Shown one piece after another: positions 4,492 through 45,418 of a stretch of 56,265 bases of DNA (position 1 is the first letter of the stretch; the number at the start of each line of letters is the position of its first letter). Origin of the DNA: Dehalococcoidia bacterium UBA1123. GTDB taxonomy: Bacteria > Chloroflexota > Dehalococcoidia > Lucifugimonadales > UBA1123. Location of the stretch: the NCBI GenBank assembly GCA_002313895.1, contig DCAW01000121.1:1-56265 (forward strand), given 5' to 3'. The notes below the pieces were generated by a model that worked only from the letters and a program-made list of their open reading frames with translations, had not been told where the DNA came from and searched no databases. The position numbers were made by a program, and so were the translations under genes.

Positions 4492-4508
4492 TCTGTGTCC
4501 AGCGGCGC

Positions 4509-9939: not shown

Positions 9940-10187
9940 GCTTGCGAAATCATCTACGTGGGCCGCATAATGTTCATAGGCGTGAGGCGCGCATCTGCTT
10001 GTCTTCTTGAATCGTAGCATACACCAGAGCGGAGCCGAGAGCGTGATGCCGCTCGCCTCGCCATGTCCACGATTCACTATTTTCTGATATTGCGCGCAAT
10101 CGAGCAAAACTTCTGCTAGCAATCAATCTGACGAATCGTCGATATTGAGAACACTAAATATGAAACGTCTCTTCGGAGGAGCGCCGA

Positions 10188-10661: not shown

Positions 10662-10662
10662 T

Positions 10663-28022: not shown

Positions 28023-28105
28023 TTATTTTCCTATCACCGAACCCGTGATCCGTCGCCTGGTATTGTTTGCGTTGGATCAACATTTGGCACGAAGAGGAGA
28101 CCGCA

Positions 28106-29146: not shown

Positions 29147-29194
29147 TCACAAACCTTGTGCGGGCCCCGACGCCTGAGTTTTAATGAAAAACAC

Positions 29195-30167: not shown

Positions 30168-31877
30168 TCAACCGGCTGAAAAATCCTTCCTCAAGAAGTC
30201 GAAATCGCATCCCTGGTCGGCTTGGAGGATGTGTTGGGCGAACATCCAGCCGTAGCCTCGTTCAAACGGTTGCTTCGTCGGCGGCGACTCGGAAAGCCGC
30301 CGCTGAATCTCGCGGTCTTCGACTAGCAGTTCCAGGCGGCGATTCGGAACATCTAGAGATATGGTGTCTCCGTTTTGCACAGCCGCTAGCGGGCCACCCT
30401 TGGCAGACTCTGGCGTGACATGCACCACTACGGTCCCGAACGCAGTGCCGCTCATGCGAGCGTCGCTCAGGCGGACCATGTCTCGAACTCCTGACGCCAG
30501 TATCTTTTTGGGCAAGGGCAGGAATCCCCACTCCGGCATTCCGGGCGCTCCTATCGGGCCACTGTTTCGCATCACTAGAACGTCATCTGGGTGAACGTCG
30601 AGGTTGGGGTCATCTATTCTTGCGGCCAGATCGTCGTGGTCCTCGAACACAATTGCACGGCCCTGGTGAGTCAGCAACTCAGGCGAGGCTGCGGTGGGCT
30701 TGATAAGCGCTCCGTCGGGTGCGAGGTTGCCGTTTAAGAGCGCCAAGCCGCCTTCTGGGTCCAATGGGGCATCCAATGATTTCACGACGTCTGGATTGTA
30801 ATTTATTGCGCTTGCAATATTTGCTCCCAACGATCGTCCGGTTACCGTCATCGCATCGGCGTGCAACAGAGGACTTATCTCTTTAAGCAGAGCCGCCAAC
30901 CCTCCTGCATACTGAAAATCCTCCATCAGGTATTGGCCCGAGGGCTTCAAATTGAGGATGAACGGCGTGGTGCGGGATAGATCGTCGAACACGGAAAGTG
31001 GCAGATCAACGCCCAATCGACCAGCGATGGCGGTTAGATGGACGATTGCATTCGTCGAACCGCCGATAGCGTGCATCGTGCGAATCGCGTTCTCCATAGC
31101 TGGGCGCGTCATGATCTTCGAGGGCGTGAGTCCTTGTTCAACAACCCGCATGATCTGACGTCCGGCGGCTTCCGCCAGACGTGCGCGGCCAGAATCGACG
31201 GCTGGGATTGTTGCGTTGCCGGGGAGGGCAATGCCCATCGCCTCGGCCATCGCCGCCATCGTGGATGCCGTGCCCATCACCATGCAGTGGCCAGGACTGC
31301 GAACGATGCAGGTCTGAAGCTCTGACCAGTCCTCCTCGGTGATGCGCCCCGCGCGAAGCTCAATCTCGTAGCGCCTGCAGTCAGTGCAAGACCCCAATTC
31401 TTCGCCTCGCCAGTTGGCCTTCAACTGCGGCCCTCCAGTGACCAGAATTGCCGGGATGTCGGCACTTGCCGCGCCCATCAACAGCGCCGGGGTTGTCTTG
31501 TCACAGCCACCCAACAAAACGACTCCATCTAGCGGATTGGCCTTGATCGACTCCTCAACGTCCATGCTCATGAGATTACGATAAAGCATGGTCGTGGGGC
31601 GCATGTTGTACTCACCGAGGGACATCACCGGAAACTCCATAGGATACCCGCCTGACATCCAGACTCCGCGCTTGACGGCCTCGGCCAGTTCGCGAAGGTG
31701 AGCGTTGCAGTGAGTCAACTCGCTCCAGGAGTTGCAAATGCCGATAATAGGCTTCCCGCGATACGACTCAGTCTCGTGGCCCTGAGCCATGAACGCGGCT
31801 TCTCGAAGCCAGCCGTAAAGCTCCGGCGTGTCGAACCATTCTCTGCTCCTCAGGGGATTTCCGTTCGGACGTTCCAT
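30168..31877 (-). CDS. IlvD/Edd-family dehydratase (sugar-acid dehydratase-like)
   Basis: 569 aa with LLGGCDKTTPALLMGA, the Fe-S ligand pattern, and TDGRFSG-like SDARMSGTAFG. Confidence 0.9.
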   Translation of the reverse strand: MERPNGNPLRSREWFDTPELYGWLREAAFMAQGHETESYRGKPIIGICNSWSELTHCNAHLRELAEAVKRGVWMSGGYPMEFPVMSLGEYNMRPTTMLYRNLMSMDVEESIKANPLDGVVLLGGCDKTTPALLMGAASADIPAILVTGGPQLKANWRGEELGSCTDCRRYEIELRAGRITEEDWSELQTCIVRSPGHCMVMGTASTMAAMAEAMGIALPGNATIPAVDSGRARLAEAAGRQIMRVVEQGLTPSKIMTRPAMENAIRTMHAIGGSTNAIVHLTAIAGRLGVDLPLSVFDDLSRTTPFILNLKPSGQYLMEDFQYAGGLAALLKEISPLLHADAMTVTGRSLGANIASAINYNPDVVKSLDAPLDPEGGLALLNGNLAPDGALIKPTAASPELLTHQGRAIVFEDHDDLAARIDDPNLDVHPDDVLVMRNSGPIGAPGMPEWGFLPLPKKILASGVRDMVRLSDARMSGTAFGTVVVHVTPESAKGGPLAAVQNGDTISLDVPNRRLELLVEDREIQRRLSESPPTKQPFERGYGWMFAQHILQADQGCDFDFLRKDFSAG

Positions 31878-31933
31878 TCAGAATTTTCTCCATCTCGGTC
31901 ACATATTAGATTCATCCGCCGGCCAGAATCCGG

Positions 31934-32587
31934 CTACGATTCCGTCGTTTGCGGTTCAGACTGCTTGACGGGTTGTTCGGCCTGGATTTGAGCGTCCATC
32001 CATCGCTTTAGCGCATCCAGTCCAGGTGGGGCGACATAAAATACCTGAATATCGGATGGGAACTGGACACGATGATCTTCTCTGATGAACAGCGCCGCAG
32101 TCTCTCCATCTTGAAGCGTTTCGCCGATTCGTTCGCCGATTCTGTCGAATCGCTGCTGAAGGGTGTTGTTGAAGCCTTCGATTGCCATGGTCGAGATTTT
32201 CTGAGACATCAGACCAATCGACAAGATTCTCTGCCAGTCGATATGCTCCTCGACTACCTCTCGATCCTCGGCTGCTTCCAGCGTTGCGGATCCACTCCGC
32301 ATGGCCTGGATGAACACGGAGCCGTGGGGATTCAGTGACTCCAACATAGCAACCGCGTCATCGTCTTTGACATAAATCATCTCGTGATAAATTCGGCTGA
32401 CCTTACCCAAGCTTCTTTCCAGATTCGCGATGGCGTCTCGAACCTCGGACCAGTAACGCTCCAAGTGTGCAACGCCTTCCTCAGGGATACCTGGCGGAAG
32501 GACGTAATTGGGCACGAGGAATATCTTCCTAGTGCCGTCGTATTGTGTGGCAGACGGTTTTTCGAATTGAGATATCGGTTGCGTCAT
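31934..32587 (-). CDS. hypothetical protein (tail gene of the formate dehydrogenase/AOR block)
   Basis: 217-aa ORF with coding-like composition and no family signature I recognise. Same strand, 93 nt downstream of the FdhA-like gene. Confidence 0.55.
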   Translation of the reverse strand: MTQPISQFEKPSATQYDGTRKIFLVPNYVLPPGIPEEGVAHLERYWSEVRDAIANLERSLGKVSRIYHEMIYVKDDDAVAMLESLNPHGSVFIQAMRSGSATLEAAEDREVVEEHIDWQRILSIGLMSQKISTMAIEGFNNTLQQRFDRIGERIGETLQDGETAALFIREDHRVQFPSDIQVFYVAPPGLDALKRWMDAQIQAEQPVKQSEPQTTES

Positions 32588-32680
32588 GGCGAGGTTGCAC
32601 CTTGTGAGTCGATTGCGTCAATTTCTCTCAAGAGTATATAACGCTATGTGCCCGAGGTTCGAGTGTCACGGAGGTGAAAA

Positions 32681-35431
32681 TTAGACCCTCACCCGCCGCC
32701 TTCGACCGTCGGAGACGACTTCGCCATTTACTAGCTTATCTACGCGCACCGCGCATACCTTGTATTCGGGAATCCTGGAGGTTGGGTCCAACGCGGGATT
32801 CGTCAAGTAATTGGCGGCGTGTTCCTGGAGCTTTGCGAATGGGACAAACAGTTCACCCGGAGCCTGTTTATCACTAAACAGAGCTCGTGCCTCCATGTCC
32901 CCTCTCCGAGAGCGAACGCGAACCCAGTCGCCATCGTCGATTCCATACTTTTGGGCGTCTTCAGCATTAATGGCAAGCTCAAGCTCTGGGGACCGAGCCA
33001 TCAAATTCGACGCTCTCCGGGTGATCGTCCCGCCGTGCCAGTGATACAGGATTCGTCCGGTGTTCAGGATCAGCGGGAAGCGTTCCGTGGGAACTTCGTC
33101 AGCCGCAGGCCCTTGATCGAACGCAACGAACTTGGCCTTCGGTCCCCTCGGAAAATCAGATTCGTAGAGGTATCGGGTACCGGGATGGTCAGAAGTCGGG
33201 CACGGCCATTGAATCCCGCCTTCCTGCTCCAACCGATCATAGGTGATGCCACCCATGATGGGAGTCAGGCCTGACAATTCGTCGAATATTTCCGAGGGGT
33301 GCGAATAGTCAAACTCGTGCTTAAGCTCCAGTCCCAGCTTGTCGCTGATACGTCGCCCTAGCTCGCCGATGATGCCCCAGTCCGGCCTGCTGTCGCCAAC
33401 AGGCTCGATCACCTTGCGGACACGCTGGACTCTGCGTTCGCTGTTGGTGAAGGTGCCGTCCTTCTCGGCGAATGTGGTAGCGGGAAGCACAACATCAGCG
33501 ATCTGAGCAGTTTCGTGAAGGAATATGTCCTGCACGACGAGGAAGTCCAGTTTCTTGAACGCGGCCTCGGCATGGGTGAGATCGGGCTCGCTCAATAGCG
33601 GATTCTCTCCAACCACGTACATGGATTTTATGCGACCGTCATCCATCGCCGTGACCATATCGGTAATGACCAGGCCATGCTCCCTAGGGAGTGGCTGGTT
33701 GCTCCAAGCATTTTCAAACTTGGAGATTGTGTCATCACTCAACACCTGATATCCGGGGAACGAGTTGGGTACACATCCGGCATCTCCGCAACCCTGAACG
33801 TTATTCTGGCCTCGAAGCGGGGAGATTCCTGACCCAGGCTTACCCAACTGACCGGACACGAAAGCGAGATTGAGGAGTCCGTGAGCGTTTGCGGTCCCCA
33901 TCGTGTGCTGCGTGACACCCATGCCCCAGATGAGGCATGACCCACTGAAAGGCGGTTGGGCATACATCCGGGCCGCGTTGGCGATATCGTTGGCTCGAAC
34001 CCCTGTGATTCCTTCGGCGTATTCGAGGGTGTACTTTTCAACCACTTCGCGCCACTCGTCGAAACCTTCGGTGCGGTCATCAACGAAACTGGTGTCTGCC
34101 AGCCCCTCGTCGAGGATTACTTTGGCCATCGCATTCAACAACGCCACGTCGGTTCCCGGACGAGGCCTGAGCCAGATGTCGGCGTAGTCGCACATATCAA
34201 TACGCCTGGGGTTGATGACTATCAGTTTCGCGCCGCGTTCGACTACCGCTCGGCGCATCCGAGAGGCCGCAACCGGATGGTTCGATGTAGCGTCAGAACC
34301 CACGACTACCAGACAGCCAGCCTCCTCATAGTCGACGTAGCTGTTAGATGTCGCTCCGCTTCCCAGGGCCGTCAACATCGCCTCGACGGAAGGGGAGTGG
34401 CATAAGCGTGTGCAGTGATCGATGTGGTTGCTCTGCATTATCAGTCGGGCGAATTTCTGTTGGATATAGCCATCCTCGTTGGTTGCTTTGGCAGAGGCCA
34501 GAGTGCCGAAAGCATCGCCGCGATATTTGATCAAGTTGTCAGCGACATACTCCATCGCCTCTTCCCAACTCACCGGTGTCAGTTCTCCGTCTTTGCGAAT
34601 CAGAGGAGACTTGATCCTGTCTTCATGGTTCACGAACGAGAAACCGAACCTGCCTTTGACGCACAACATTCCGACGCTTGAGAGGTTGTCAGGGTCGTCT
34701 TCGATCTCGATGATTTGGTCTTTGGCGTCCACTTTGGCCTTTATTCCGCATCCAACTCCGCAGTAGGGGCAAGTCGTTGTGACGGTTTTGATCTCTTGGG
34801 CTGGCGCGAACTTTACGTCTATGGCGCCTGTGGGGCAGGACGCAAGGCACGAGCCGCAGGTGGTGCAAACGGACTCTAGCAAAGGTTTGTCCATGAATGT
34901 GCCGATACGCGAAGATTGTCCGGCGCCAAGAAAATCGATGGCTCCAATAAATTGATGGCCATCCTGGCACGCCTGGGCACATCGGCCACACAAGATGCAG
35001 GAGTCCATAGCGATGTTGAAGACCGGGTTGCTATCGTCGACGGTTTCGCGCTCGCGAGGCTCCCACCGGGATTTATCTATGTTGTAATGATTCGCGGCGA
35101 CCGAAAGCTCTTGGAAGTCGCTGGGGCCGTCCTGAACATTCTCACCGACCATCGACAACGTCAACTCTACGACGCCGCGACGAATCGAGTCCAGTTCAGG
35201 AGTATCGGTCCAGATCTTCATGCCATCCGATGCCGGAGTCGAACACGAAGCCGGGTATCCTCGGACTCCCTCGATCTGCACTAGGCAGGTCCGACATGCG
35301 CCGATGGCCTTCATGTCAGGGTCTTTGCAAAGCTGCGAGATGTAGGTTCCCGAGATGTTGACCACGTCCAAAACCGACGAGCCCTCGGGGGCGTCGATCT
35401 GGTTGGCGTTTATCGAAAGGGTGATACTCAT
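32681..35431 (-). CDS. fdhA: formate dehydrogenase alpha subunit, FdsA/NuoG-like (2Fe-2S + 4Fe-4S N-terminus, Mo/W-bisPGD catalytic domain), Cys type
   Basis: 916 aa. Contains an N-terminal 2Fe-2S ferredoxin-like domain, CILCGRCAQAC and CTTCGSCLASCP clusters, TTCPYCGVGCG, and the active-site stretch HCTRLCHSPSV with Cys rather than Sec. Confidence 0.92.
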   Translation of the reverse strand: MSITLSINANQIDAPEGSSVLDVVNISGTYISQLCKDPDMKAIGACRTCLVQIEGVRGYPASCSTPASDGMKIWTDTPELDSIRRGVVELTLSMVGENVQDGPSDFQELSVAANHYNIDKSRWEPRERETVDDSNPVFNIAMDSCILCGRCAQACQDGHQFIGAIDFLGAGQSSRIGTFMDKPLLESVCTTCGSCLASCPTGAIDVKFAPAQEIKTVTTTCPYCGVGCGIKAKVDAKDQIIEIEDDPDNLSSVGMLCVKGRFGFSFVNHEDRIKSPLIRKDGELTPVSWEEAMEYVADNLIKYRGDAFGTLASAKATNEDGYIQQKFARLIMQSNHIDHCTRLCHSPSVEAMLTALGSGATSNSYVDYEEAGCLVVVGSDATSNHPVAASRMRRAVVERGAKLIVINPRRIDMCDYADIWLRPRPGTDVALLNAMAKVILDEGLADTSFVDDRTEGFDEWREVVEKYTLEYAEGITGVRANDIANAARMYAQPPFSGSCLIWGMGVTQHTMGTANAHGLLNLAFVSGQLGKPGSGISPLRGQNNVQGCGDAGCVPNSFPGYQVLSDDTISKFENAWSNQPLPREHGLVITDMVTAMDDGRIKSMYVVGENPLLSEPDLTHAEAAFKKLDFLVVQDIFLHETAQIADVVLPATTFAEKDGTFTNSERRVQRVRKVIEPVGDSRPDWGIIGELGRRISDKLGLELKHEFDYSHPSEIFDELSGLTPIMGGITYDRLEQEGGIQWPCPTSDHPGTRYLYESDFPRGPKAKFVAFDQGPAADEVPTERFPLILNTGRILYHWHGGTITRRASNLMARSPELELAINAEDAQKYGIDDGDWVRVRSRRGDMEARALFSDKQAPGELFVPFAKLQEHAANYLTNPALDPTSRIPEYKVCAVRVDKLVNGEVVSDGRRRRVRV

Positions 35432-35483
35432 TAACGCAGTTCCTGTTCAATCGGTCTTAGGTTTGAATCACACCGGGCGAATG

Positions 35484-37070
35484 TCATGCCGTCGTCAGCA
35501 TCGCCAGTTCATCGCCAAAGAAATGCAGAGCGCTGAGGATTGGATTTCCTGCGGCCTGGCCCAGACCACATAACGACGCAGAGTTCACTACGCGAGCGAG
35601 GTACTCCATTTCCTCAATGTCCTGAGATTTGCCATCGCCGGCCGCGATCTTGTCTACCAAATTCACCATGCGAGGCGTTCCTTCACGGCAAGGCGTGCAT
35701 TTACCGCAGGATTCGTTGGCATTGTAAGAGGCGAGATTTCGCATGACTTCGAGTAGGCTCACGCGATCGTCCAGAACGATTACGCCTCCGGCGCCTAACA
35801 TGACCCCAGATTCGTGTAACATGCCACCCTTGATAGGCGTGTCCAGCATAGAAACCGGAAAAACCCCGCTGGACGGCCCACCGACACCCAACATGCGTAG
35901 GGAGCTGCCTGCTTTGGGACCGCCCCCCACCTGATCGACGATGTCCCGTAGCGTTGTGCCCATCGGCAACTCGGCGACACCAGATCGATTGACTACACCA
36001 CTTAGGCTTATGATTTTGGTGCCGGCGTCAGCTTCTGTCCCGATCGCTTTGAATACCGAAGCGCCATTCTTCAAGATGTAAGGAAGACTGGCCAGCGTTT
36101 CGGGGTTATTTATGACCGTTGGTTTCGCATTTAGTCCGGCTTCAGTTGGAAAAGGCGGCTTCAAACGCGGCTCTCTTCGGTAGCCTTCCAATGTGTTCAG
36201 GAGCGTCGTCTCTTCGCCACAAACATACCCTCCAGCGCCGCGCCTGATTTCCACTTCAAGATCGAATCCAGACTCAAGGATATTTTTCCCGATCAGCCCC
36301 AGCGCTCGCGCGGCCAGGATCGCCGACCCCATGCGTTCAGCGGACAACTCAGCCTCGGCGTTGATATAGATTATTGCCTCTGTGACTCCGGCGGCGTAGG
36401 ACGCGATCATCGCGCCTTCGAGAATCCGGTGAGGAACGCCTTCCATCAGATGACGGTCTTTGAAAATTCCAGGCTCGCCCTCCTCGCAATTTACTACCAG
36501 GTACTTTGGTGTGTTGCGAACGTTGCGCGCGGCTTCCCATTTCAGCGCCGCCGGAAAGTACGCTCCGCCCCGACCTCGAAGGCCGGAGGCTTTGACCTCT
36601 TCAATGACCTGCTCTGGAGCGCTCTGAAGGGACGCGGCGAGACCTGAATAGCCACCGTTGCTGATGTAATCGTCGATGTGTGTGGATTCCAGTGTTCCGC
36701 AACCGTCTAGCGCTATGCGGGTCTGGCGAGAGAAGAATGGATGGGATTCGGCGGCTGGTTGGGAATGGACATTTGCAAGGTTGCTTAGGATGTCGGGGAT
36801 GTCCTCAGGGGCCACACGGACATGCCTGACGTTTCCGACTGTAACGACCGGTGCTTCATAACATGCCCCGTCGCATCCTGAAACGACTAGAACGGCGGAT
36901 TCCGACAGTTGCGAGGCGAGTTGTTCAGCGATTGACTCGACTCCCGCAGATGCCGAACAGTGACTCCATTGCACGATCACGCGAGATTTGTCGGAAAACC
37001 TGGCAGATATGTTCTCGTTGGATGATTTGAATATTGCGTTAAAGGCGGCTTTGACATCTTGATCGCTCAT
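35484..37070 (-). CDS. NuoF-like NAD(H)/FMN-binding subunit (FdsB-type)
   Basis: 528 aa with GRGGAYFP, GAGGYVCGEETTLLNTLEG and a C-terminal 4Fe-4S motif (ESCGKCTPCREG). Confidence 0.92.
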   Translation of the reverse strand: MSDQDVKAAFNAIFKSSNENISARFSDKSRVIVQWSHCSASAGVESIAEQLASQLSESAVLVVSGCDGACYEAPVVTVGNVRHVRVAPEDIPDILSNLANVHSQPAAESHPFFSRQTRIALDGCGTLESTHIDDYISNGGYSGLAASLQSAPEQVIEEVKASGLRGRGGAYFPAALKWEAARNVRNTPKYLVVNCEEGEPGIFKDRHLMEGVPHRILEGAMIASYAAGVTEAIIYINAEAELSAERMGSAILAARALGLIGKNILESGFDLEVEIRRGAGGYVCGEETTLLNTLEGYRREPRLKPPFPTEAGLNAKPTVINNPETLASLPYILKNGASVFKAIGTEADAGTKIISLSGVVNRSGVAELPMGTTLRDIVDQVGGGPKAGSSLRMLGVGGPSSGVFPVSMLDTPIKGGMLHESGVMLGAGGVIVLDDRVSLLEVMRNLASYNANESCGKCTPCREGTPRMVNLVDKIAAGDGKSQDIEEMEYLARVVNSASLCGLGQAAGNPILSALHFFGDELAMLTTA

Positions 37071-37576
37071 GAGCTCATTGCCTCTTTGATGAGCCTCGAT
37101 GCATCATCCGACGAGACTCTGCCATGCCATGCGCCATCCATCTCAATTGCAGGGGCGAGCGCGCACACGAATCCGCAGGGAATTTCTTCCAGGGTGAATT
37201 GTCCGTCATCGGTGGTTGAGCCAGAATGCATGTCGAATCGCGATTGCAAGGATGCGAGAACGTCGCTTGCTCCGTTCGCCCAGCAACTTAGTCCGGTGCA
37301 AACCCGCACGATGTGCTTCCCGGGCTTGTCGATTCGCAGCTCGGTGTAGCTCGTGGCTGCTCCGTAAACTTCAGATGCGGCAATCCCGAGATGCCAGCTA
37401 ACGACCTCCATCGCCCATTCAGGCAGGTGTCCGAATTGGTGGTGTAGGTAGTGCAACGCGGGCAGAAGTTGCCCATGATCTCTCGGGAAGTTTTCCCGAA
37501 GCTCGCGCCTCAAGATGTTTCGTTCTGACGTCAAATTGGCCCCTTTACACGTTGGTCGTTTCAGCATTTTGGACAA
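37067..37576 (-). CDS. NuoE-like 2Fe-2S subunit (FdsG-type)
   Basis: About 165 aa with LLPALHYLHHQFGHLP and the cysteines VCTGLSCWANG and CGFVCALAP. ATGA overlap with the NuoF-like gene. The annotated start lies 32 nt inside the AOR gene; the exact start is uncertain. Confidence 0.85.
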   Translation of the reverse strand: MSKMLKRPTCKGANLTSERNILRRELRENFPRDHGQLLPALHYLHHQFGHLPEWAMEVVSWHLGIAASEVYGAATSYTELRIDKPGKHIVRVCTGLSCWANGASDVLASLQSRFDMHSGSTTDDGQFTLEEIPCGFVCALAPAIEMDGAWHGRVSSDDASRLIKEAMSS

Positions 37577-39389
37577 TCATGTCGAGGCCCAGTTCTTCCA
37601 ATTTCGATGCAGGTATGTCGCCTTCGAACGTCCAACCTCGGACACGGTAATAACCAGCGATCATCATGTCCAAGTCATCGTGGCTCAAGCCTACGCCTTT
37701 GCCGACGCCATCCACAAGGTTCTCAGACAAGACCCGACCCGGCAGGGTGTCATCATCGCGAACCCAGCCTTCGCGGATGTTGAACAGCTTTTTCATATTG
37801 TTGATTCTCTCGCCGGCTAGCTTCAACTCGTCCGGAGTTATCGGATAGCCGGTAATTTGCTGAAATACGGAAGCGGACTCGCCGTAAAAATCGTCGAACG
37901 CCTTGCGCAAGAATTTGCACCATATCAGAGAGTCGAGGACGGCTGAGAAGTCCTCACCGTCCATTGTGATCTGCCCTCTAGCATCGTCAGCAGAGAAACG
38001 GTCGACCCGTGCCGAGAAATCCGCTTCGTAGGCTGACGACCGGTTGTGGCAAGCCCCTTTGGTGCTTACCGCCAACCCCAGCGCCATCGTCTTGAGCGAA
38101 CGAGGCTCATATCCGGGCATCTCAAGCCCCTTGACCTGCATGGCCCAGGCGTCGGACCCGCCGCCGACAGACCGTGCTGCTCGAAGACTGCCTTCAGCCA
38201 GGAGATTGCCTATCCCGTCTCTCTTGGCGATCATCTGAAGGCATTCTATCACTGCTTCGGCATTGCCAAAACGCAGGTCGATGCCGCCGGTGTCTTCTAA
38301 TGTGATCAGGCCGCGCTCGAAGGACTCCATCGCCCACGCGATCGTCGCTCCTGCGCTGATCGTGTCCATTCCCATTTCGTCACAAAAGGTTGAAGCTCTG
38401 ATCACTGCGTTTGGATCACCGACGCCCACCAACGAGCCCAGAGCGAAGGCGCTTTCATATTCCATGCGGCCTTGTTTCTTGGTCCCGCCGTCCGTAGTGA
38501 CGACGATCTTCTCACAGCCGATTGTGCAGTTGGCGCAGTGGGAGTTTTTTACGAAATGAGTCTCGTGAAACTCCTCGCCACTAACTTCCTGGGCCGATTC
38601 AAATGTGGTCTGCTGGAAGTTTCGAGTCGGAAGCGTTCCGAGGGCATCAAACACAGCTACATTGGCGAGCGTTCCCAGCGTTCTATATTTCTCAGTGGCA
38701 GGCCCCAGGCTCCGACGGGACAGATCACGGCCAACTTCGTTCAGGCCGTCGGGATCGTACACATCCGGCAAACTGCCGCCCCGCACACCGATTGCTTTGA
38801 GGTTCTTGGACCCCATGACCGCGCCCGTGCCGGTGCGACCCGCCTGACGGCCCCCGTCATTGGCGATGCTGGCGTATCGGACCATGCGTTCTCCGGCTGG
38901 GCCAATGCAGGCTACACGAGTCCAGTGTCCGATCTGTTTTTTAACTTTTGTTTCGGTCTCAAATGTATCGAGGCCCATCAGTCGGGATGCGTCATGAAAA
39001 TTGACTTCGCCGTCGAGGATCGTGAGCAACGTGGGAGTTTCGCTCCGCCCTTTTATTATCAGGGCGTCGCAACCCGACTTCTTCATCTCGACAGCGATAA
39101 AACTGGATGACAAAGAATCGCCGATCATCCCGGTCAATGGAGATTTCGTGAGCACCGCGAATTTGCTGGACGTCGTCAACCTGCTACCGACCAATGGACT
39201 TCCGACAAATATCAGGGGATTGTCGGGGTGAAAAGGATCAACGCCAGCCGGGCAATGTCGGTAGAGCAGATACGCGCCCAGGCCGGTGCCGCCGATGAAC
39301 TTGCGGAGGATTGACTCTGGTATCGCTTCCCATTCGGTTGACTTGGCGCTCAGGTCAACGATTAATGCTCTGCCGTGGTACCCGTACAC
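37545..39389 (-). CDS. aor: tungsten-type aldehyde:ferredoxin oxidoreductase family protein
   Basis: 614 aa. The N-terminus YGYHGRALIVDLS...GGTGLGAYLL, the 4Fe-4S ligands CANCTIGC and KGACHNRS, and full AOR N- and C-domain length are all present. GTG start. Confidence 0.92.
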   Translation of the reverse strand: MYGYHGRALIVDLSAKSTEWEAIPESILRKFIGGTGLGAYLLYRHCPAGVDPFHPDNPLIFVGSPLVGSRLTTSSKFAVLTKSPLTGMIGDSLSSSFIAVEMKKSGCDALIIKGRSETPTLLTILDGEVNFHDASRLMGLDTFETETKVKKQIGHWTRVACIGPAGERMVRYASIANDGGRQAGRTGTGAVMGSKNLKAIGVRGGSLPDVYDPDGLNEVGRDLSRRSLGPATEKYRTLGTLANVAVFDALGTLPTRNFQQTTFESAQEVSGEEFHETHFVKNSHCANCTIGCEKIVVTTDGGTKKQGRMEYESAFALGSLVGVGDPNAVIRASTFCDEMGMDTISAGATIAWAMESFERGLITLEDTGGIDLRFGNAEAVIECLQMIAKRDGIGNLLAEGSLRAARSVGGGSDAWAMQVKGLEMPGYEPRSLKTMALGLAVSTKGACHNRSSAYEADFSARVDRFSADDARGQITMDGEDFSAVLDSLIWCKFLRKAFDDFYGESASVFQQITGYPITPDELKLAGERINNMKKLFNIREGWVRDDDTLPGRVLSENLVDGVGKGVGLSHDDLDMMIAGYYRVRGWTFEGDIPASKLEELGLDMIVQNAETTNV

Positions 39390-39391
39390 GC

Positions 39392-39724
39392 TCAGCCTCC
39401 AGCCTGACTAGAAAATAAAAGAATCTCGTCTCCTGATCGCAGTTCCACCTCTCCATCAATAAATGCCACTCCATTGAGGTTGAATGTGTGGCTGGTCTTC
39501 AATCTTAAAGTATCGATGTCGATAACGGGGCCAACGAGCGAGGGAATCGAACTTTGGATCAGGCGAGCTAACTGGAGTTCTGAACATCTCGCAGGAGCAG
39601 CAATCTCAAGGTGGGTCATCCCGGCGGCGCGCCTCGCCGTTCCGAACAATCGCACCGTGATTTGGACAGTGGCAGAGTTGTCAGGGCCGCGCGTCAATGT
39701 GATATCCAGGTTGTCAGCATTCAT
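39392..39724 (-). CDS. MoaD/ThiS-family ubiquitin-like sulfur-carrier protein (C-terminal Gly-Gly)
   Basis: About 110 aa from ATG 39724, ending ...EILLFSSQAGG-stop. Beta-grasp-like pattern VRLFGTARRAAG. 2-nt spacer to the AOR start. Confidence 0.7.
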   Translation of the reverse strand: MNADNLDITLTRGPDNSATVQITVRLFGTARRAAGMTHLEIAAPARCSELQLARLIQSSIPSLVGPVIDIDTLRLKTSHTFNLNGVAFIDGEVELRSGDEILLFSSQAGG

Positions 39725-40328
39725 TTGCGTGTTGGTTTGCTCTGTCGAGATCGTCCTGGGTGTTGACGTTAAAAAAGCTGAACCTCTGGGGATCAATCCT
39801 TTCCACTTCGTCCTGAGGAATGCTGGTCACTGCCACGTCATCGAAGAATCCGGCGATCTTCAGTCGGCCACTTTCGATTTTTCCGCGGATGTGAGGAATG
39901 CAGACTTTTGAATAGGCCGCGTGAGTCGGCTCCGGCCTGCCATCCAACACAGGGACAACTACGTCAGAGTCTCGGCGATTGTCTACCAGAAGTTTTAGAA
40001 GTTTCTTGTTCAGAAATGGCAAATCACAGGCGACAACCACAATCCATGGCGTCCTGGCTCTGGAGAGACCAGTGTAAATCCCCCCAAGCGAACCGGTGTC
40101 AGGATACTCGTCCACTACAGATTTCACACTAGGAGGCAAGTCTAGCTCCTGGGACCGCTGGTCGTTATTCACGACAACTAGAATCTGATTTGCCACAGAA
40201 CCCACCCGCTCGATAACACGACTGATCAACGGACGTCCTCCAACCAGTTCCAACGCCTTGTTTCGACCGAGCCTTCTGCTCATGCCTCCAGCGAGGATTA
40301 CGCCTGTTATTTCGTCGTTCGATGTCAT
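39714..40328 (-). CDS. mobA: molybdenum cofactor guanylyltransferase
   Basis: ITGVILAGGMSRRLGRNKA N-terminal motif and MobA length. ATG 40328 preferred; GTG 40358 is possible. Confidence 0.85.
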   Translation of the reverse strand: MTSNDEITGVILAGGMSRRLGRNKALELVGGRPLISRVIERVGSVANQILVVVNNDQRSQELDLPPSVKSVVDEYPDTGSLGGIYTGLSRARTPWIVVVACDLPFLNKKLLKLLVDNRRDSDVVVPVLDGRPEPTHAAYSKVCIPHIRGKIESGRLKIAGFFDDVAVTSIPQDEVERIDPQRFSFFNVNTQDDLDRANQHANEC

Positions 40329-40359
40329 GATATCGCCTGTAAAATCAGCGTAACACACC

Positions 40360-42315
40360 TCATTTTAGTGGGCCAGCAATTCTGGCGATCACTTCTCCCA
40401 TTTGCCCGGCGTCATAACCGCCCAACTCCTCTACTTTAATCCGGAAATCCGATGATTGAATCAATTGCAACATGGGGGCAAGAAGTTCTGAATCGTAAAT
40501 ATCTTCAGGTATTGCAAGATCGTACCTTTCGTTGAACAGTGGAATGAAATCCATGCCGATGGCCCGAGCCGCCGACAAGATGCCGAGTCCGACGTTGGCT
40601 CTTCCTCCGGCGACTGCCGCCGCGACAGCAAGGTGCGTATATTCCTCTCGTTCGTAACCGGTGACTTGTTGAGTGTCTATACCAGCCGCAACAAGTTTGT
40701 AATCTAGAAGAACTCTGGTGCCTGAACCGCGTTGTCGGTTAACGAACACGATGTCTTCTCGGGCAAGGTCGTTGAGCGATTCGATACTGGCGGGATTTCC
40801 TTTCGGAATTATGAACCCCTGCACCCGATGCACGAGATTTACCAGGACGACACACTGGTTTCGCACGTAACGTCGCAAAAATGAGACGTTGTACTCGCCA
40901 GACTCTTCGTCCAGCAAATGAGTCCCAGCCAAATGGGCTTCGCCTCGATCAATTGCTCTGAGACCTCCCAAACTGCCGACATTGGAGCTTGCGAATGAAA
41001 CACCGCCTGTGCCGGTTAACTCGCTGGCGATGAGATCAAGCACTAGATCATGGCTTCCTGTCGCGACGATTGTGTGTTCAATGGCTTCCAATGGTCTCAA
41101 TAGGTTAACTGTAACTTGCGTCCCGGCCTCAACGCCTTCACTGAGTCGTGGAATTTTCACCAGTCCGTCGGCTCTAACCAGAGACATAATCACTCCGGCG
41201 CCTCGCTGTATTGGCGTCGCCACCATGCGCTCTCGGACCCGTCCCAATTTGACTCTCAGATATTCGTCTTCTCCCAAAGGAGAATGCACGTTACGAGCTA
41301 TCGTCGCGTCGGCGATATCGCGCGACACTTCTCGGAGACCGAGCGCCTTTTCAATCAGGGGTTTGACGAATAGTTCGCATGACAGAGCGGCAGAGACCGG
41401 ATAGCCAGGGATGCCGAGAGTCGGTTTGCCATTCACGACACCCAACACGACCGGATGTCCAGGTCGGATGGCGACTCCGTGAACCGCAAGCTCACCCAGA
41501 TCAGCGACAATTTCGGCTGTGTAGTCCTCCGAACCGGCGGAAGAGCCTGCGTTGACCAACACGATGTCAGATTCGACAGCCGCATTGGACACAGCGGTCT
41601 TGATCGCTTCGTAGTCGTCAGCCACGGGCGGCGACGTCTGAGAACTGCCTCCCCATTCGTCCACCAAACCTCCGATAATCAGCGAGTTGAATTCAACGAT
41701 GTCACCCGGTTTCAGTGTCGCGCCAATGGGCACAAGTTCCGTGCCTGTGGGAATTATCGTCACCACGGGCTTTCGACTAACCGACACATCAGTTAATCCA
41801 GCGGCGGCGCATGCTCCTAGATCAACTGGTCGAAGGACATGGTTCTTAGGCAGAATCAACTCGGTGGCGACAATATCTTCGCCGATGGGGCGAACGTGAT
41901 GGTAGGGCGGCACAGGCGCTTGAATCTCGATGGTTGCATCGTCGAGTTCGTGGACATGCTCGACCATTATCACCGAGTCGAAACCATCCGGCATCGGATC
42001 GCCGGTGTCGACCCATCTAACCTGATCTGGTGAAGAGAGTCTAAGCGGAGAAGACTCAGTAGCGCCAATCGTCTCTTTGGCTCGGACAGCGATGCCATCC
42101 ATCGCGGCAGCGTCATAGTGAGGCGAGGACGCGACTGCCCAAACTGGCGCCGCTGTGACTCTGCCGCGGGCTTCGATCAACGGAATGGTTTCAAAAGCAG
42201 TGGTTAAGGCGACCCCAGACTGATCGAGTTGGGCGCTGAATCGTTCGAGCGCCTCATCCAGGGGCAAGTCGCTGAGGTAGTAATCTCTTCCGTGGCGATG
42301 ACCTTGTTGACGCAT
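40360..42315 (-). CDS. moeA: molybdopterin molybdo/tungsto-transferase MoeA fused to a C-terminal periplasmic-binding-protein-like (molybdate-binding-type) domain
   Basis: The MoeA core (AAMDGIAVRA, IIPTGTELV, GIPGYPVSA) is followed by about 225 aa resembling type-2 PBP / COG1910-like domains (IVATGSHDLVLDL...VNRQRGSGTRVLLD). ATG 42315 avoids overlap with the upstream moeA. Confidence 0.83.
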   Translation of the reverse strand: MRQQGHRHGRDYYLSDLPLDEALERFSAQLDQSGVALTTAFETIPLIEARGRVTAAPVWAVASSPHYDAAAMDGIAVRAKETIGATESSPLRLSSPDQVRWVDTGDPMPDGFDSVIMVEHVHELDDATIEIQAPVPPYHHVRPIGEDIVATELILPKNHVLRPVDLGACAAAGLTDVSVSRKPVVTIIPTGTELVPIGATLKPGDIVEFNSLIIGGLVDEWGGSSQTSPPVADDYEAIKTAVSNAAVESDIVLVNAGSSAGSEDYTAEIVADLGELAVHGVAIRPGHPVVLGVVNGKPTLGIPGYPVSAALSCELFVKPLIEKALGLREVSRDIADATIARNVHSPLGEDEYLRVKLGRVRERMVATPIQRGAGVIMSLVRADGLVKIPRLSEGVEAGTQVTVNLLRPLEAIEHTIVATGSHDLVLDLIASELTGTGGVSFASSNVGSLGGLRAIDRGEAHLAGTHLLDEESGEYNVSFLRRYVRNQCVVLVNLVHRVQGFIIPKGNPASIESLNDLAREDIVFVNRQRGSGTRVLLDYKLVAAGIDTQQVTGYEREEYTHLAVAAAVAGGRANVGLGILSAARAIGMDFIPLFNERYDLAIPEDIYDSELLAPMLQLIQSSDFRIKVEELGGYDAGQMGEVIARIAGPLK

Positions 42316-42322
42316 GATCGAT

Positions 42323-43564
42323 TCACGGACCGCCGTGCAGCCGGACCTCGACTTGTTCGCCAGCGTATCGGCCACCATCGTCCATTGGAATTGCCATCAT
42401 TCCATCGGAGTTAACCAGCGTGAAAATCAGATTCGACTTGCCGAACACCGGCTCAGCGCATAGGACTCCATTTTCTCGATGAAGGCGAACAGGGATGTGG
42501 TCTTCTCGACCCGCGACGGAGGGAACATCTCTGGAGAGAATCGCCATGACAGGGGGCCAGGCCGGCGACTCTGTTAATCCCGATACAAGATGGATAATCG
42601 GCCTGACCACCAGATCAAACACAACGACCGCCGACACCGGATTGCCGGGCAGTCCGAACAGCGGCTTACCTTTTGCAATGCCCACAATGGTTGGCTTGCC
42701 AGGCTTGATTGATATGCCATGCACGAGCGCTCCGGGTTCGCCCAGACGATTCAACACGTCGATAGTCATATCGCGGCTGCTCAGAGAACTACCGGCTGAA
42801 AATATCAAGACATCAGCTGAATCAAAAGCCCTTTGCGCCACTGCGAGTTGGGCTTCAAAGTTGTCCGGCACCAGATCATAGTTGACCGGCACGGCGCCAC
42901 ATTCCGTGACGCGGGCCGCAATCGTGTAGCTGTTGATGTCACGAACCTGGCCGGGCTTTGGCGTTTCATCGGGCATGACTAACTCGTCGCCTGTAGAGAT
43001 AATTGCAACCCTGGGTTTGCGGACTACTTCGACCTCGGTGATGCCAAGCGCGAGCATGCCACCGACGTCCTGAGAGCGTATTCGGTGGGCTGAAGGCAAA
43101 ACGACATCACCCAACTCGACGTCCTCGGACACCTGAACGACGTTTTCACCTGGAGCCACCGGCGATGTTACTTCGATCGTGTTTTCATCCACGGTCAACG
43201 TGCGCTCGATCATGACCACAGCGTCGGCGCCTTGCGCCAGCATGCCCCCTGTATAGGCCACGGCCGCCTCTCCGATTCTCAGAGAAACTGACGATTGCTG
43301 GCCGGTTGGCACGTCGCCAACGACAGTCAGCAACGCAGGTAGGGACTCCGATGCTCCGTAGGTGTCCTGTGCTCGCACGGAATAACCATCCATGCTAGAC
43401 CTAGCGAATGAAGGTAGTTCTTCCGTCGAAATCACCAATGCGCTAGTAACACGGTGTAGTGAGTCCACCGCTGGTATGGGCTCTGAATGTAGTCGCCGAT
43501 CCAGCCGGCATTTGAGCACCGCCACTGCGTCGGCTGGGGCAACCGTGTTGAAGAATTCGGGCAC
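42323..43564 (-). CDS. moeA: molybdopterin molybdotransferase MoeA (stand-alone paralog)
   Basis: 413 aa with SSMDGYSVRA, ISTGDELV and GLPGNPVSA. Canonical four-domain MoeA length. Confidence 0.9.
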   Translation of the reverse strand: MPEFFNTVAPADAVAVLKCRLDRRLHSEPIPAVDSLHRVTSALVISTEELPSFARSSMDGYSVRAQDTYGASESLPALLTVVGDVPTGQQSSVSLRIGEAAVAYTGGMLAQGADAVVMIERTLTVDENTIEVTSPVAPGENVVQVSEDVELGDVVLPSAHRIRSQDVGGMLALGITEVEVVRKPRVAIISTGDELVMPDETPKPGQVRDINSYTIAARVTECGAVPVNYDLVPDNFEAQLAVAQRAFDSADVLIFSAGSSLSSRDMTIDVLNRLGEPGALVHGISIKPGKPTIVGIAKGKPLFGLPGNPVSAVVVFDLVVRPIIHLVSGLTESPAWPPVMAILSRDVPSVAGREDHIPVRLHRENGVLCAEPVFGKSNLIFTLVNSDGMMAIPMDDGGRYAGEQVEVRLHGGP

Positions 43565-43628
43565 AGGCGCGTCTCAATAGTTTAAAGTGTACCCATTATA
43601 ACTCGTGGAGTCCTATAGCGCGCCAGTA

Positions 43629-45251
43629 TTACAATCCCAGGATGTTGCCCCTCTCGTCGACGTCCAATTGGCGAGGACTGCCGGGCAAACCAGGCATGGT
43701 CACGATATTCCCAGCGATGGGGTAAATGAATCCTGCGCCCACCGAAGCCCGGATGTCGGAAACCTCGAAGGTGTAGTTAGAAGGTCGCCCTTTGAGTGCC
43801 GCCCGGTGGGAGATGGACAGATGGGTTTTCGCCATGCAGATTGGCAGGTTGCCCCAGCCGTTCTCTTCAAACTGCCGCCTGAGCCGTCTGGCTGGTAGCG
43901 CCCACTGAACCCCGTCGGCATTGTAAACAAGTTTCGCGAGCGCTTGCACTTTGTCCAGTATAGGCGCCTCGACATCATAAGCGTAGTTGATCTCAGGGTC
44001 TTCGCCCTCGGTGGCTTCAAGCAGAGCTTGGGCAAGCTCCATGCCGCCTGCTCCGCCTTCGGCGAAAACTTTGCTTTCTACGGCGGCAAACGCTCCGGCT
44101 TCTTCAGCGGCTTTTTTGACAATGGCTGTCTCAGCCGGCGTGTCGGTGGGGAAGTGGTTCAGCGCCACGACAACAGGAAGGTTGAACGACTTTATGACTC
44201 CGATGAGATGTTCGAGATTTTCGACACCCTTTTGCACTGCTTCTTCGTTAGGCGTGTCCAGGTCTCTTGGGCGAACGCCTCCGTGGTACTTGACTGCCCG
44301 CACGGAGGCGACGAGCACCGCAGCGCTGGGCTCCAGGTCATTGAATCGAGCCTTTATGTGCATGAATTTTTCGAATCCGAGGTCCGCCCCGAATCCTGCT
44401 TCTGACAACACGTAATCGGCGTAACCAAGAGCAAGCCTGTCGCCCACCACCGAACTGCATCCGTGGGCTATGTTTCCGAACGGTCCGGCGTGAACGATAA
44501 CGGGCTGACCTTCTGTGGTCTGCACGATGTTGGGTTGGATGGCGTATCTAAGCAGCGCCATCATCGAGCCGACGGCGTTGACGTCGGCGGCAGTGACGGG
44601 TTTGTTGTCGCCGGTGTAGCCGACTACGATGCGACTGATGCGCTCTCGCAAGTTCTCCAAATCGCGGGCCAGCGCGAGGATAGCCATTATCTCGGACGCG
44701 GTAACGATGTCGAATCCTGTTTCGCGCAGAGGGGCGTTGTTCGAGCCGCCGACTCCAGCGATGATCGAACGAATAGCTCGGTCCTCAACATCCATTACAC
44801 GGCGCCAAGTCATACCTTCAGGGCGGAATCCGTCCACCTGGCCTCTCTGCGCAGCGTTATCGGTGAGCGCCGCCAGTAAGTTGTGGGCCGATGCGACTGC
44901 ATGAGCATCGCCTGTGAAATGGATGTTCACCTCGTCTTCGGGTTGAATCAGGGATTTTCCGCCGCCGGTCCCTCCACCTTTGATTCCAAATATAGGGCCA
45001 AGCGAAGGTTCCCGCAAAGTGGCGACCACCTTTTTCCCTAGTCGTCCGAGGCTCTGGGTCAACCCTACGGTCGTTGTTGTTTTGCCTTCTCCTGCCGGGG
45101 TCGGCGTGATCCCAGTGACGACGACCATCTTGCCGCGACGACCACCTTTTTTGATGGCACTCAGCTCAATCTTCGCCTTGAAGTGACCATAGGGAATTAC
45201 CGATTCCCGGTCAAGCCCCAACTCCTCCGCAACCTCGGTGATCGGACGCAT
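43629..45251 (-). CDS. fhs: formate--tetrahydrofolate ligase
   Basis: 540 aa with the P-loop TPAGEGKTTTTVGL and FTHFS family motifs throughout. GGAGGA RBS present. Confidence 0.96.
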   Translation of the reverse strand: MRPITEVAEELGLDRESVIPYGHFKAKIELSAIKKGGRRGKMVVVTGITPTPAGEGKTTTTVGLTQSLGRLGKKVVATLREPSLGPIFGIKGGGTGGGKSLIQPEDEVNIHFTGDAHAVASAHNLLAALTDNAAQRGQVDGFRPEGMTWRRVMDVEDRAIRSIIAGVGGSNNAPLRETGFDIVTASEIMAILALARDLENLRERISRIVVGYTGDNKPVTAADVNAVGSMMALLRYAIQPNIVQTTEGQPVIVHAGPFGNIAHGCSSVVGDRLALGYADYVLSEAGFGADLGFEKFMHIKARFNDLEPSAAVLVASVRAVKYHGGVRPRDLDTPNEEAVQKGVENLEHLIGVIKSFNLPVVVALNHFPTDTPAETAIVKKAAEEAGAFAAVESKVFAEGGAGGMELAQALLEATEGEDPEINYAYDVEAPILDKVQALAKLVYNADGVQWALPARRLRRQFEENGWGNLPICMAKTHLSISHRAALKGRPSNYTFEVSDIRASVGAGFIYPIAGNIVTMPGLPGSPRQLDVDERGNILGL

Positions 45252-45418
45252 GTGCTATCCTCCGAATTTGTTCTCGATTCGATGCCCTTGAAGAACGGAC
45301 GCGCGAATTGTAGCATAAGCACTCTCTAAGTCAATTTCAGGAAATTTCGGTCTGTCAAGTTGGAACATCGGCAGTTTCGAAGCCGAATATCGAAGATTTC
45401 GTTTGTGGAGGGATTACC

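Follow-up and report, generated by a model that had tools for sequence, protein, structure and literature searches.

A tungsten-type aldehyde oxidoreductase gene among cofactor and formate dehydrogenase genes of SAR202 bacteria: a candidate tungsten-cofactor and formate island

Introduction

The family of tungsten-type aldehyde oxidoreductases (AORs) includes several described architectures. In Class I WOR enzymes, such as the AOR of Pyrococcus furiosus (PfAOR) and BmWOR of Brevibacillus massiliensis, a single WorL subunit with one [4Fe-4S] cluster occurs without the polyferredoxin WorS, and Class I WOR plus WorX is a category of the 2026 classification (PMC13328260). Pairs of MoaD and AOR genes accompanied by tungsten-cofactor genes have been known as a mobile neighbourhood since 2006 (Iyer, Burroughs and Aravind; PMC1779556). 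The multi-subunit AOR-family enzymes characterised structurally are all wired via a polyferredoxin (PMC12318220, PMC13328260). Class III is represented by AorABC of Aromatoleum aromaticum (PDB 8c0z), and Class IV by WorABCSL of Acetomicrobium mobile (PDB 9mqx) and BamBCDEFGHI, in which the AOR-family subunit is encoded beside NuoE-, NuoF- and NuoG-like genes. Here, we describe an AOR gene of SAR202 bacteria that lies directly upstream of genes for a predicted formate dehydrogenase (FDH) of the nicotinamide adenine dinucleotide (NAD) type, in 56,265 nt (positions 1–56,265) of contig DCAW01000121.1 of Dehalococcoidia bacterium UBA1123 (SAR202, Dehalococcoidia). This whole stretch of DNA is referred to below as the window.

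NAD+-dependent metal FDHs such as FdsABG of Rhodobacter capsulatus and Cupriavidus necator and FDH1 (Fdh1AB) of Methylorubrum extorquens have NuoE- and NuoF-like subunits and a NuoG-like subunit that carries bis-molybdopterin guanine dinucleotide (bis-MGD). Maturation of the tungsten FDH of M. extorquens relies on MobB, FdhD and the dedicated MoeA paralogue MoeA1, with MobA in the same pathway (PMC13197769). In the bifurcating enzymes of the Bfu family, the BfuB subunit holds clusters B2–B5 besides B1, and non-bifurcating homologues are without B2–B5; a survey of this family reports a Bfu sub-clade of bifunctional enzymes, formate dehydrogenase and [FeFe]-hydrogenase in one, placed in the same BfuB clade as the Wor-Bfu group of Firmicutes, and no AOR gene in an fdsGBA-type operon (PMC9304861).

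In the deep oxygenated ocean, SAR202 bacteria rank with the most abundant cells (PMC5395668). No paper linking them to tungsten enzymes or describing this cluster was found in the SAR202 literature searched, and no description of an AOR gene embedded in an NAD-type FDH operon was found in the SAR202, WOR-classification or Bfu literature, nor in general searches. The components are all of known families, and MoaD-AOR-cofactor neighbourhoods are themselves already known.

Results

An AOR gene among cofactor and formate dehydrogenase genes

The first-pass annotation of the window had presented four genes, aor, nuoE (fdsG), nuoF (fdsB) and fdhA (fdsA), as a unit. They form instead the middle of a block of 11 same-strand genes that covers about 15 kb of the minus strand (30168–45251) in the order fhs-moeA-moeA/PBP-mobA-worX-aor-fdsG-fdsB-fdsA-orf217-ilvD, headed by fhs and four cofactor genes, with gaps of no more than 93 nt and with opposite-strand genes on both sides. 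We favour, with a probability of roughly 0.55, the reading that two independent pterin enzymes, the AOR and the FDH, are kept together here in a tungsten-cofactor and formate island and are not parts of a hybrid enzyme. The exact AOR protein is encoded on at least 23 marine metagenome contigs, TARA Oceans scaffolds among them, and the gene order on these contigs is identical.

Genes were annotated from a scan of open reading frames (ORFs) and their translations, Pfam, NCBIfam and PDB sequence matches, and public gene calls on identical contigs. Much of the earlier description of the four genes survived this examination: the AOR gene is full length and encodes 614 residues with both the AFOR_N and AFOR_C domains, the four genes share the minus strand, nuoE and nuoF overlap by ATGA (−4 nt), and a Cys-type FdhA of the length given follows nuoF after 52 nt. 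The statement that no room is left for a promoter or terminator between the genes also agrees with our results, as no terminator-like hairpin was found within the intergenic gaps of the block, and promoter-like and terminator-like counts in the region show no excess over shuffled sequences. The described overlap of aor with the first 32 nt of nuoE applies to the longest ORF only, which opens at TTG 37576. The likely start is TTG 37534, which lies 10 nt past the aor stop, is preceded by AAAGGGG and is used in public gene calls (155 aa); similarity of NuoE to its relatives begins downstream of this codon.

Conservation within SAR202

Window proteins were compared by tblastn with 32 genome loci, 29 of which belong to metagenome-assembled genomes (MAGs) of SAR202, Dehalococcoidia or Chloroflexi. 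The nearest locus (L001), from a SAR202 cluster MAG, encodes an AOR 85% identical to that of the window. Conservation of the order aor-nuoE-nuoF-fdhA, which had been proposed as a check, is borne out: the arrangement fhs-moeA-moeA/PBP-mobA-moaD-aor-nuoE-nuoF-fdhA(-orf217-ilvD), in which moaD denotes worX, is kept at AOR identities as low as 54% in every SAR202 locus whose sequence is long enough, and the adjacency of AOR and FDH genes recurs elsewhere. The exceptions are L018, L020, L021 and L030 (57–59% identity), where mobA, the ORF ending in Gly-Gly and aor are kept, no FDH genes lie nearby, and the genes that come after aor are on the opposite strand (an enolase-like gene in each locus and an rsmG-like gene in L020 and L021, as judged from ORF translations). 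These four loci are nested inside the SAR202 clade of the AOR tree, which points to a secondary loss of FDH adjacency. In L033 (68% identity), no FDH genes were found in flanks of 8.6 kb downstream and 2.3 kb upstream. The C-terminal tail of the AOR, the N-terminal tail of NuoE and the C-terminal tail of FdhA are not conserved, as seen from the tblastn ranges.

Spacers within the block vary between relatives. Some SAR202 loci carry DUF433+DUF5615 or RelB-like modules of toxin-antitoxin type between nuoF and fdhA, and in some relatives ORFs of 85–143 aa without a family match occupy the spacer between aor and nuoE; insertions of small modules or ORFs lie at L002 13930–14993, L003 13932–14713, L011 14245–14691, L022 14237–14836 and L008 11769–12035. 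Intergenic spacers thus tolerate insertions. In one SAR202 sublineage, a stretch of 2–3.4 kb with a luciferase-like monooxygenase gene on the same strand and a cupin gene on the opposite strand splits nuoF from fdhA (L013 14180–17550, L014 14070–16140, L015 14440–16580), so that aor-nuoE-nuoF are contiguous and fdhA stands apart.

Conservation outside SAR202

A metagenome scan with the AOR alignment gave 80 diverse loci, and the AOR clade was defined on a neighbour-joining tree, in which AORs of 46–53% identity group with those of SAR202. The non-SAR202 members also adjoin NAD-type FDH and MobA/MoeA-PBP genes, in other arrangements. The order is AOR>FdhA>beta>MoeA>MoeA-PBP in L039, with about 40 nt between AOR and FdhA; AOR>FdhA, about 26 nt apart, in L044; AOR>aldo-keto reductase>FdhA in L040; and beta>FdhA>AOR in L048. 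In L042, L043, L046 and L055, moaD and aor lie together in inverted orientation, with mobA on one side and the fdh genes on the other. The beta subunit of these non-SAR202 islands is a NuoE-NuoF fusion of the Fdh1B type, as in FDH1 of M. extorquens. Judged by their named relatives, L048 belongs to the Kofleriaceae (Myxococcota) and L044, with an FdhA 92% identical to MBO0814867.1, to the Actinomycetota, so that the recurrence spans three phyla, Chloroflexota, Actinomycetota and Myxococcota, along with unnamed metagenome contigs.

Of the informative loci, 36 of 41 in this clade and 0 of 24 in other AOR clades showed AOR-FDH adjacency (Fisher p 3e-13, for loci that are not phylogenetically independent); a locus counted as informative when each flank reached 3 kb or more, or when an FDH was found. 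MobA or MoeA-PBP was present within the flanks of 42/54 loci of the clade versus 0/58 of other clades, under detection thresholds set on the window proteins, which could miss very divergent genes. As at least two phyla besides Chloroflexota show the adjacency too, with the genes differently ordered and oriented, some functional link between AOR and FDH is likely.

One apparent AOR-FdhA fusion of the Rosetta-stone kind (P0210), the one AFOR_C+Fer2_4 protein found with a chimeric query of AOR C-terminus and FdhA N-terminus, was rejected as a frameshift artefact, its contig carrying AOR fragments and an out-of-frame linker. The 90% cluster of the L044-type AOR (P0148/P0149) lists pure FdhA proteins (P0153, P0155, P0159); this is most likely a database artefact in which frameshifted read-through ORFs such as P0210 bridge the two genes.

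The AOR resembles stand-alone Class I enzymes

The best PDB match of the AOR is WorL of the bifurcating WorABCSL (9mqx_D, 404 bits), followed by PfAOR (399), AorB (325), P. furiosus FOR (315) and BamB (163). The motif CANCTIGC, named in the first-pass annotation as a cluster-ligand motif, does supply three [4Fe-4S] ligands, C285, C288 and C292, whereas GACHNRS, named with it, is not a ligand motif: the fourth ligand is C491, and H448 of the GACH motif is a pterin-site/active-site residue. The four cysteines align with C288, C291, C295 and C494 of PfAOR. T240, E312, Y427 and H448 align with Thr243, Glu313, Tyr427 and His448 of PfAOR (1aor alignment), which are the residues of aldehyde-oxidising members (PMC13328260). 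The four cluster ligands, T240 and H448 are invariant among seven diverse clade members. His383, which in PfAOR belongs to the bridging iron of the dimer, is not conserved in the window AOR.

The preceding gene, worX, encodes a small protein with no Pfam match in the window, and its orthologue in L055 reaches the Pfam ThiS cutoff. For most clade members, a Gly-Gly-ended ORF lies 2–20 nt upstream of the AOR gene; in around a dozen SAR202 loci the distance is about 100 nt or greater. In the Actinomycetota-like islands, the longest form of this ORF has 283–342 aa (L039 5935–6792, L040 1128–1979, L044 834–1862, L059 5649–6500), a length suggestive of a ThiS-like domain fused to a larger upstream protein, possibly MobA-like.

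With a WorL lacking an adjacent WorS, its catalytic residues and single [4Fe-4S] cluster kept, and a ThiS-like WorX adjoining, the AOR conforms to Class I (+WorX), for which BmWOR offers a precedent in an aerobe. The strictly adjacent Gly-Gly-ended gene, with two moeA genes and mobA directly upstream, likewise matches the MoaD-AOR neighbourhood of 2006. In contrast to both, the cassette is embedded between mobA and NAD-FDH genes, across three phyla, and the ferredoxin and pyridine-nucleotide-disulfide oxidoreductase genes of the 2006 neighbourhood are absent. Among all window ORFs of at least 40 aa, the ferredoxin/polyferredoxin motif CxxCxxCxxxC occurs only in FdhA and in a distant, unrelated ORF (54130–55458). 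Pfam detected no Fer4-only subunit and no flavin adenine dinucleotide (FAD)/pyridine-nucleotide oxidoreductase subunit among the block genes and neighbours, and no polyferredoxin of the WorS/AorA/BamC type was found in the block or in the related loci inspected.

Comparison with the multi-subunit enzymes shows both likenesses and differences. AorABC (Class III) is also a bacterial, mesophilic tungsten AOR, is NAD+-linkable and has a MoaD-like gene in its operon; the block, however, encodes neither the AorA polyferredoxin nor the FAD/NAD(P)-binding subunit AorC, and AorB scores below PfAOR and WorL. WorABCSL and Bam (Class IV) share with the window an AOR-family gene beside NuoE-, NuoF- and NuoG-like genes, but the window has no WorS/BamC and its NuoF-like protein is without the C-terminal ferredoxin (Fer4) domain. 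Moreover, the NuoG-like protein of the window is a full FDH, while WorA is a short protein that carries a zinc finger and, at its C-terminus, an adaptor helix. WorABCSL is the third NAD-linked AOR on record; the first-pass annotation, which had named two exceptions to the use of ferredoxin, overlooked it.

We infer that the bis-pterin site of the AOR holds tungsten rather than molybdenum. Pointers in this direction are the two MoeA paralogues, one of them PBP-fused, and the closeness of FdhA to a tungsten enzyme.

A predicted NAD+-dependent formate dehydrogenase

The downstream genes encode an alpha subunit with FDH motifs and domains, a NuoF-like beta and a NuoE-like gamma subunit, the composition of NAD+-dependent metal FDHs of the FdsGBA/Fdh1AB type, including their flavin mononucleotide (FMN) and N3-cluster domains. 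FdhA has the domains Fer2_4, Fer4, Molybdop_Fe4S4, Molybdopterin and Molydop_binding, and finds its best PDB matches in Fdh1A, a tungsten enzyme of M. extorquens (696 bits), and in FdsA of R. capsulatus (648 bits). Its active-site motif DHCTRLCHSPS is near-identical to DHCTRLCHASS of Fdh1A; CTRLCH aligns with the Sec-His of 9t1s_L, the Cys corresponding to selenocysteine, and the motif PLRGQNNVQG is conserved. The CxxxxC...CxxxC motif of NuoE is present in the translation. MobA is required for the bis-MGD cofactor of FdhA and not for the AOR. Reliance on MoeA-type maturation, with MobA in the same pathway, is a further likeness to M. extorquens FDH1 (PMC13197769). The block differs from FdsGBA operons in the AOR gene interposed upstream of fdsG, and from fdsGBACD-type operons in that no FdsD or FdsC/FdhD family member was found among the 11 genes or flanks; these are not required for the Fdh1AB type.

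The NuoF-like protein is more similar to BfuB-type proteins (455–432 bits; 9bov_B 455, StnB 436) than to FdsB (315–323 bits). Residues 1–127 (36690–37070, minus strand) form a thioredoxin-like domain whose C38, C66, C70 and C124 align with cysteines of BfuB. Three of these four are kept in 24/25 SAR202 orthologues and all are lost jointly in L012. FdsB of the R. capsulatus type (9wxb_C) is without this four-Cys N-terminus and its CxxxC pair. At the other end, the protein stops at residue 528, six residues past the NADH_4Fe-4S domain, while BfuB proteins run on for about 75 residues, and the C-terminal 2×[4Fe-4S] domain of BfuB (e.g. StnB 526–577) is missing. Only the B2-like N-terminal pattern of the Bfu family is therefore kept, and in the fused betas of the non-SAR202 islands both the N-terminal four-Cys domain and the C-terminal ferredoxin domain are absent. 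From these features, FdsGBA is predicted to be a conventional, non-bifurcating NAD+-dependent formate dehydrogenase, and the N-terminal domain of NuoF suggests an extra [2Fe-2S] cluster in this otherwise non-bifurcating enzyme.

The nearest relative, L001, has a second NuoE-like and a second NuoF-like gene (9278–10824) just after fdhA, where the window has orf217 and ilvD. The second NuoF-like protein also carries an N-terminal thioredoxin-like [2Fe-2S] domain.

Discussion

In the island that we favour, one transcript, probably starting upstream of fhs, would cover the block. Two MoeA metal insertases, one of them fused to a domain of oxyanion-binding type, would finish the cofactors together with MobA and WorX. 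The AOR would act as a stand-alone Class I tungsten enzyme with one [4Fe-4S] cluster and a W-bis-pterin, converting aldehydes, possibly formaldehyde, to acids and passing electrons from its own cluster to a soluble acceptor encoded elsewhere. The NuoEF module would serve FdsGBA alone, carrying electrons of formate to NAD+, with formate supplied by Fhs and perhaps also by the AOR. The genes would thus be linked through a common metal-insertion pathway and simultaneous need and not through common subunits. We infer the electron acceptor, the substrates and the co-transcription in this scheme. That the MoaD-aor cassette is separable is indicated by its inversion in one lineage and by its occurrence without neighbouring FDH genes in another, and the MobA/MoeA genes are as constant around the AOR as the FDH genes are.

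Several observations sit uneasily with such an island. The AOR-FDH adjacency, often of 10–70 nt, has outlived rearrangements and the change between split and fused NuoE-NuoF in three phyla, and a loose cofactor island would call for less conservation than this. The tungsten cofactor is needed by other AOR clades as well, but they have no FDH or MoeA/MobA neighbours at thresholds tuned to the window proteins. The motif scan of window ORFs found no gene for an electron acceptor of the AOR nearby. The BfuB-type four-Cys domain of NuoF, missing in R. capsulatus-type FdsB, could be an extra electron entry.

A rival explanation is a hybrid complex, in which WorL would dock directly on the Fe-S chain of FdsGBA without WorS, so that aldehyde and formate feed one FMN/NAD+ site in a new, non-bifurcating NAD-linked class. 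The first-pass annotation had proposed in a similar vein that AOR and FdhA share one NuoEF module. The clade-specific adjacency (36/41 versus 0/24), its survival through at least five gene orders and with split as well as fused NuoE/NuoF, its tight spacing (10 nt in the window) and the extra conserved four-Cys domain of the SAR202 NuoF speak for such a complex; no ferredoxin gene was found nearby in the motif scan of the window; the top PDB match of the AOR is the WorL of a complex; and WorABCSL and BamB-I are precedents for wiring to NuoEFG-like modules (PMC12318220, PMC9304861). All solved multi-subunit WORs, however, pass electrons from L2 to S1 of WorS/AorA/BamC (PMC12318220), and no such adaptor is encoded here. 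The AOR scores about as well against ferredoxin-dependent PfAOR as against WorL, the inverted cassettes imply divergent transcription, the AOR persists without neighbouring FDH genes in four SAR202 loci and has none in the flanks of L033, the fused betas are without the four-Cys domain of NuoF, the only apparent fusion is an artefact, and the AOR, NuoE and FdhA tails lack conservation. With the cofactor genes equally constant and the spacers interrupted in relatives, we regard a hybrid of this kind as unlikely. The more specific proposal, that this AOR clade forms a direct, adaptor-free complex with an NAD-dependent FDH in which electrons run from the AOR [4Fe-4S] cluster to the FdsA/FdsB/FdsG clusters, in SAR202 perhaps via the B2-like NuoF domain, is less likely still. 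Flavin-based electron bifurcation, which was also raised at the outset, finds some encouragement in the similarity of the NuoF-like protein to BfuB and in the retained B2-type N-terminal cysteines. It would require more than the protein offers, as the lack of the B2–B5 clusters defines non-bifurcating homologues (PMC9304861) and the BfuB C-terminal domain is missing; the Fdh1B-type betas of other islands carry neither domain. SAR202 bacteria are also aerobes. We consider bifurcation extremely improbable.

The grouping may also reflect metabolic coupling only, an explanation that partly overlaps with the tungsten-cofactor and formate island. The AOR would then be a formaldehyde oxidoreductase in a terminal one-carbon (C1) oxidation module with the cofactor genes as passengers: formaldehyde would be oxidised to formate by the AOR, formyl-tetrahydrofolate (formyl-THF) converted to formate by Fhs, and formate oxidised to CO2 with production of NADH by the FDH. 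In keeping with this scheme, fhs heads the operon at a position kept in SAR202, dehydrogenase and reductase genes flank the block, and the oxidation of methyl groups by way of THF, formaldehyde and formate has been predicted from SAR202 genomes (PMC5395668). In the aerobic methylotroph Methyloversatilis growing on methanol, a tungsten AOR whose gene is not adjacent to fds has been proposed to act on formaldehyde, its transcript rising with that of ftfL (PMC5023235). Substrate specificity is nevertheless not readable from sequence, and the AOR scores higher against the broad-specificity PfAOR and WorL (399–404 bits) than against P. furiosus FOR (315). Non-SAR202 AOR-FDH islands are without fhs, and of all neighbours the cofactor genes, the supposed passengers, are the most constant. 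We regard this purely metabolic reading as improbable. If the order were a frozen accident, inherited vertically in SAR202 and without functional meaning, the collinearity of the whole 15-kb block, the unrelated ilvD included, would be accounted for, and part of the synteny is indeed lineage history. The idea fares poorly outside the lineage: in Actinomycetota, Kofleriaceae and other contigs, the same AOR clade has FDH and MoeA/MobA genes as neighbours, in differing orders, orientations and FDH architecture. As a full explanation it is very improbable.

If the island reading is true, SAR202 bacteria, which are aerobes, keep two oxygen-tolerant pterin enzymes and a dedicated metal-insertion pathway, which would matter for how aldehydes and C1 compounds of dissolved organic matter are turned over and for the tungsten or molybdenum demand of the ocean. 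Separate enzymes would also make the locus a clear natural example of the co-maturation of a bis-molybdopterin (bis-MPT) and a bis-MGD enzyme. A direct complex, if it exists, would be a two-headed tungsten enzyme that handles aldehydes and formate at one FMN/NAD+ site, or one that drives acid reduction with formate, and would add a sixth WOR class, present in a group that ranks among the most abundant bacteria of the dark ocean. The clade-specific AOR-FDH-MoeA/MobA neighbourhood is a testable candidate for a new wiring of AOR to NAD+.

Further features of the locus

Table 1. Genes of the block and candidate promoter, in the direction of transcription (window coordinates)
Feature	Coordinates	Strand	Description	Evidence
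fhs	43629..45251	-	formate-tetrahydrofolate ligase, 540 aa; opens the block	PF01268, 729 bits; NF010030, 697 bits, above cutoff
moeA	42323..43564	-	pterin-cofactor metal insertase, paralogue 1, 413 aa	MoeA_N, MoCF_biosynth, MoeA_C
moeA/PBP	40360..42378	-	MoeA paralogue 2 fused to a PBP-like domain (oxyanion-binding type), 672 aa	MoeA domains and PF12727 (PBP_like); NF011068, 767 bits, above cutoff
mobA	39714..40358	-	molybdopterin guanylyltransferase	PF12804; MobA NCBIfam matches all below cutoffs
worX	39392..39724	-	MoaD/ThiS-like protein, 110 aa, Gly-Gly C-terminus	ATG overlaps mobA stop; stop 2 nt before AOR GTG
aor (worL)	37545..39389	-	tungsten-type aldehyde oxidoreductase, 614 aa; GTG start after GGAGG	PF02730, 241 bits, and PF01314, 404 bits; residues 6-602
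fdsG (nuoE-like)	37067..37534 (longest ORF to 37576)	-	[2Fe-2S] subunit, 155 aa	PF01257; best NCBIfam match formate dehydrogenase subunit gamma, below cutoff
fdsB (nuoF-like)	35484..37070	-	FMN and [4Fe-4S] subunit, 528 aa	PF01512 (Complex1_51K), SLBB, PF10589 (NADH_4Fe-4S)
fdsA (fdhA)	32681..35431	-	predicted Cys-type bis-MGD formate dehydrogenase alpha, 916 aa, NuoG-like Fe-S N-terminus	TIGR01591, 780 bits (cutoff 666)
orf217	31934..32587	-	SAR202-restricted conserved hypothetical protein, 217 aa, Cys-free; 93 nt downstream of fdhA	no Pfam/NCBIfam match
ilvD	30168..31877	-	dehydratase of the ilvD/edd family, 569 aa; last gene of the block	PF00920 and PF24877 in public gene calls
Candidate operon promoter	45307..45334	-	TTGACT-16-TACAAT with TG extension, about 55 nt upstream of fhs	10/12 matches; consensus match only

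The genes of the block and its candidate promoter are collected in Table 1. The mobA reading frame gives 214 aa as the longest ORF and 204 aa in public gene calls, which place the start near 40328. The moeA-PBP fusion accompanies AOR and FDH genes in other phyla too. No Moco/Wco riboswitch or other Rfam family was detected in the window at gathering thresholds.

The position of ilvD is kept across SAR202. Homologues of orf217 number 514; most are unnamed, and those with names are nearly all hypothetical proteins of Chloroflexi. The gene stands beside fdhA in most SAR202 loci, with an opposite-strand DUF429 gene intervening in L002–L007 and L017. Its AlphaFold2 model is confident (pLDDT 87.8, pTM 0.82), and a Foldseek comparison of the model with the PDB gave no fold match (best TM 0.28). 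Whether orf217 belongs to the functional unit is uncertain.

On L116, the contig of P0210, a PBP_like_2/SBP_bac_11 gene, a permease gene and an ABC ATPase gene, together resembling a Tup/Mod-like oxyanion transporter, lie upstream of AOR-FdhA (3515–5809). The AOR and FdhA of this contig, which is full of frameshifts, are 72–82% identical to Actinomycetota sequences. The presence of such a transporter beside AOR-FdhA supports the reading of the neighbourhood as a metal-cofactor island.

The flanks of the block (window 45419–46447 and 28067–30145, both plus strand; L113) encode two Zn-dependent alcohol dehydrogenases, a short-chain dehydrogenase, an aldo-keto reductase and an HpcH/HpaI aldolase. 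These enzymes, and the aldo-keto reductase that lies between AOR and FdhA in L040, could form aldehydes for the AOR or consume them.

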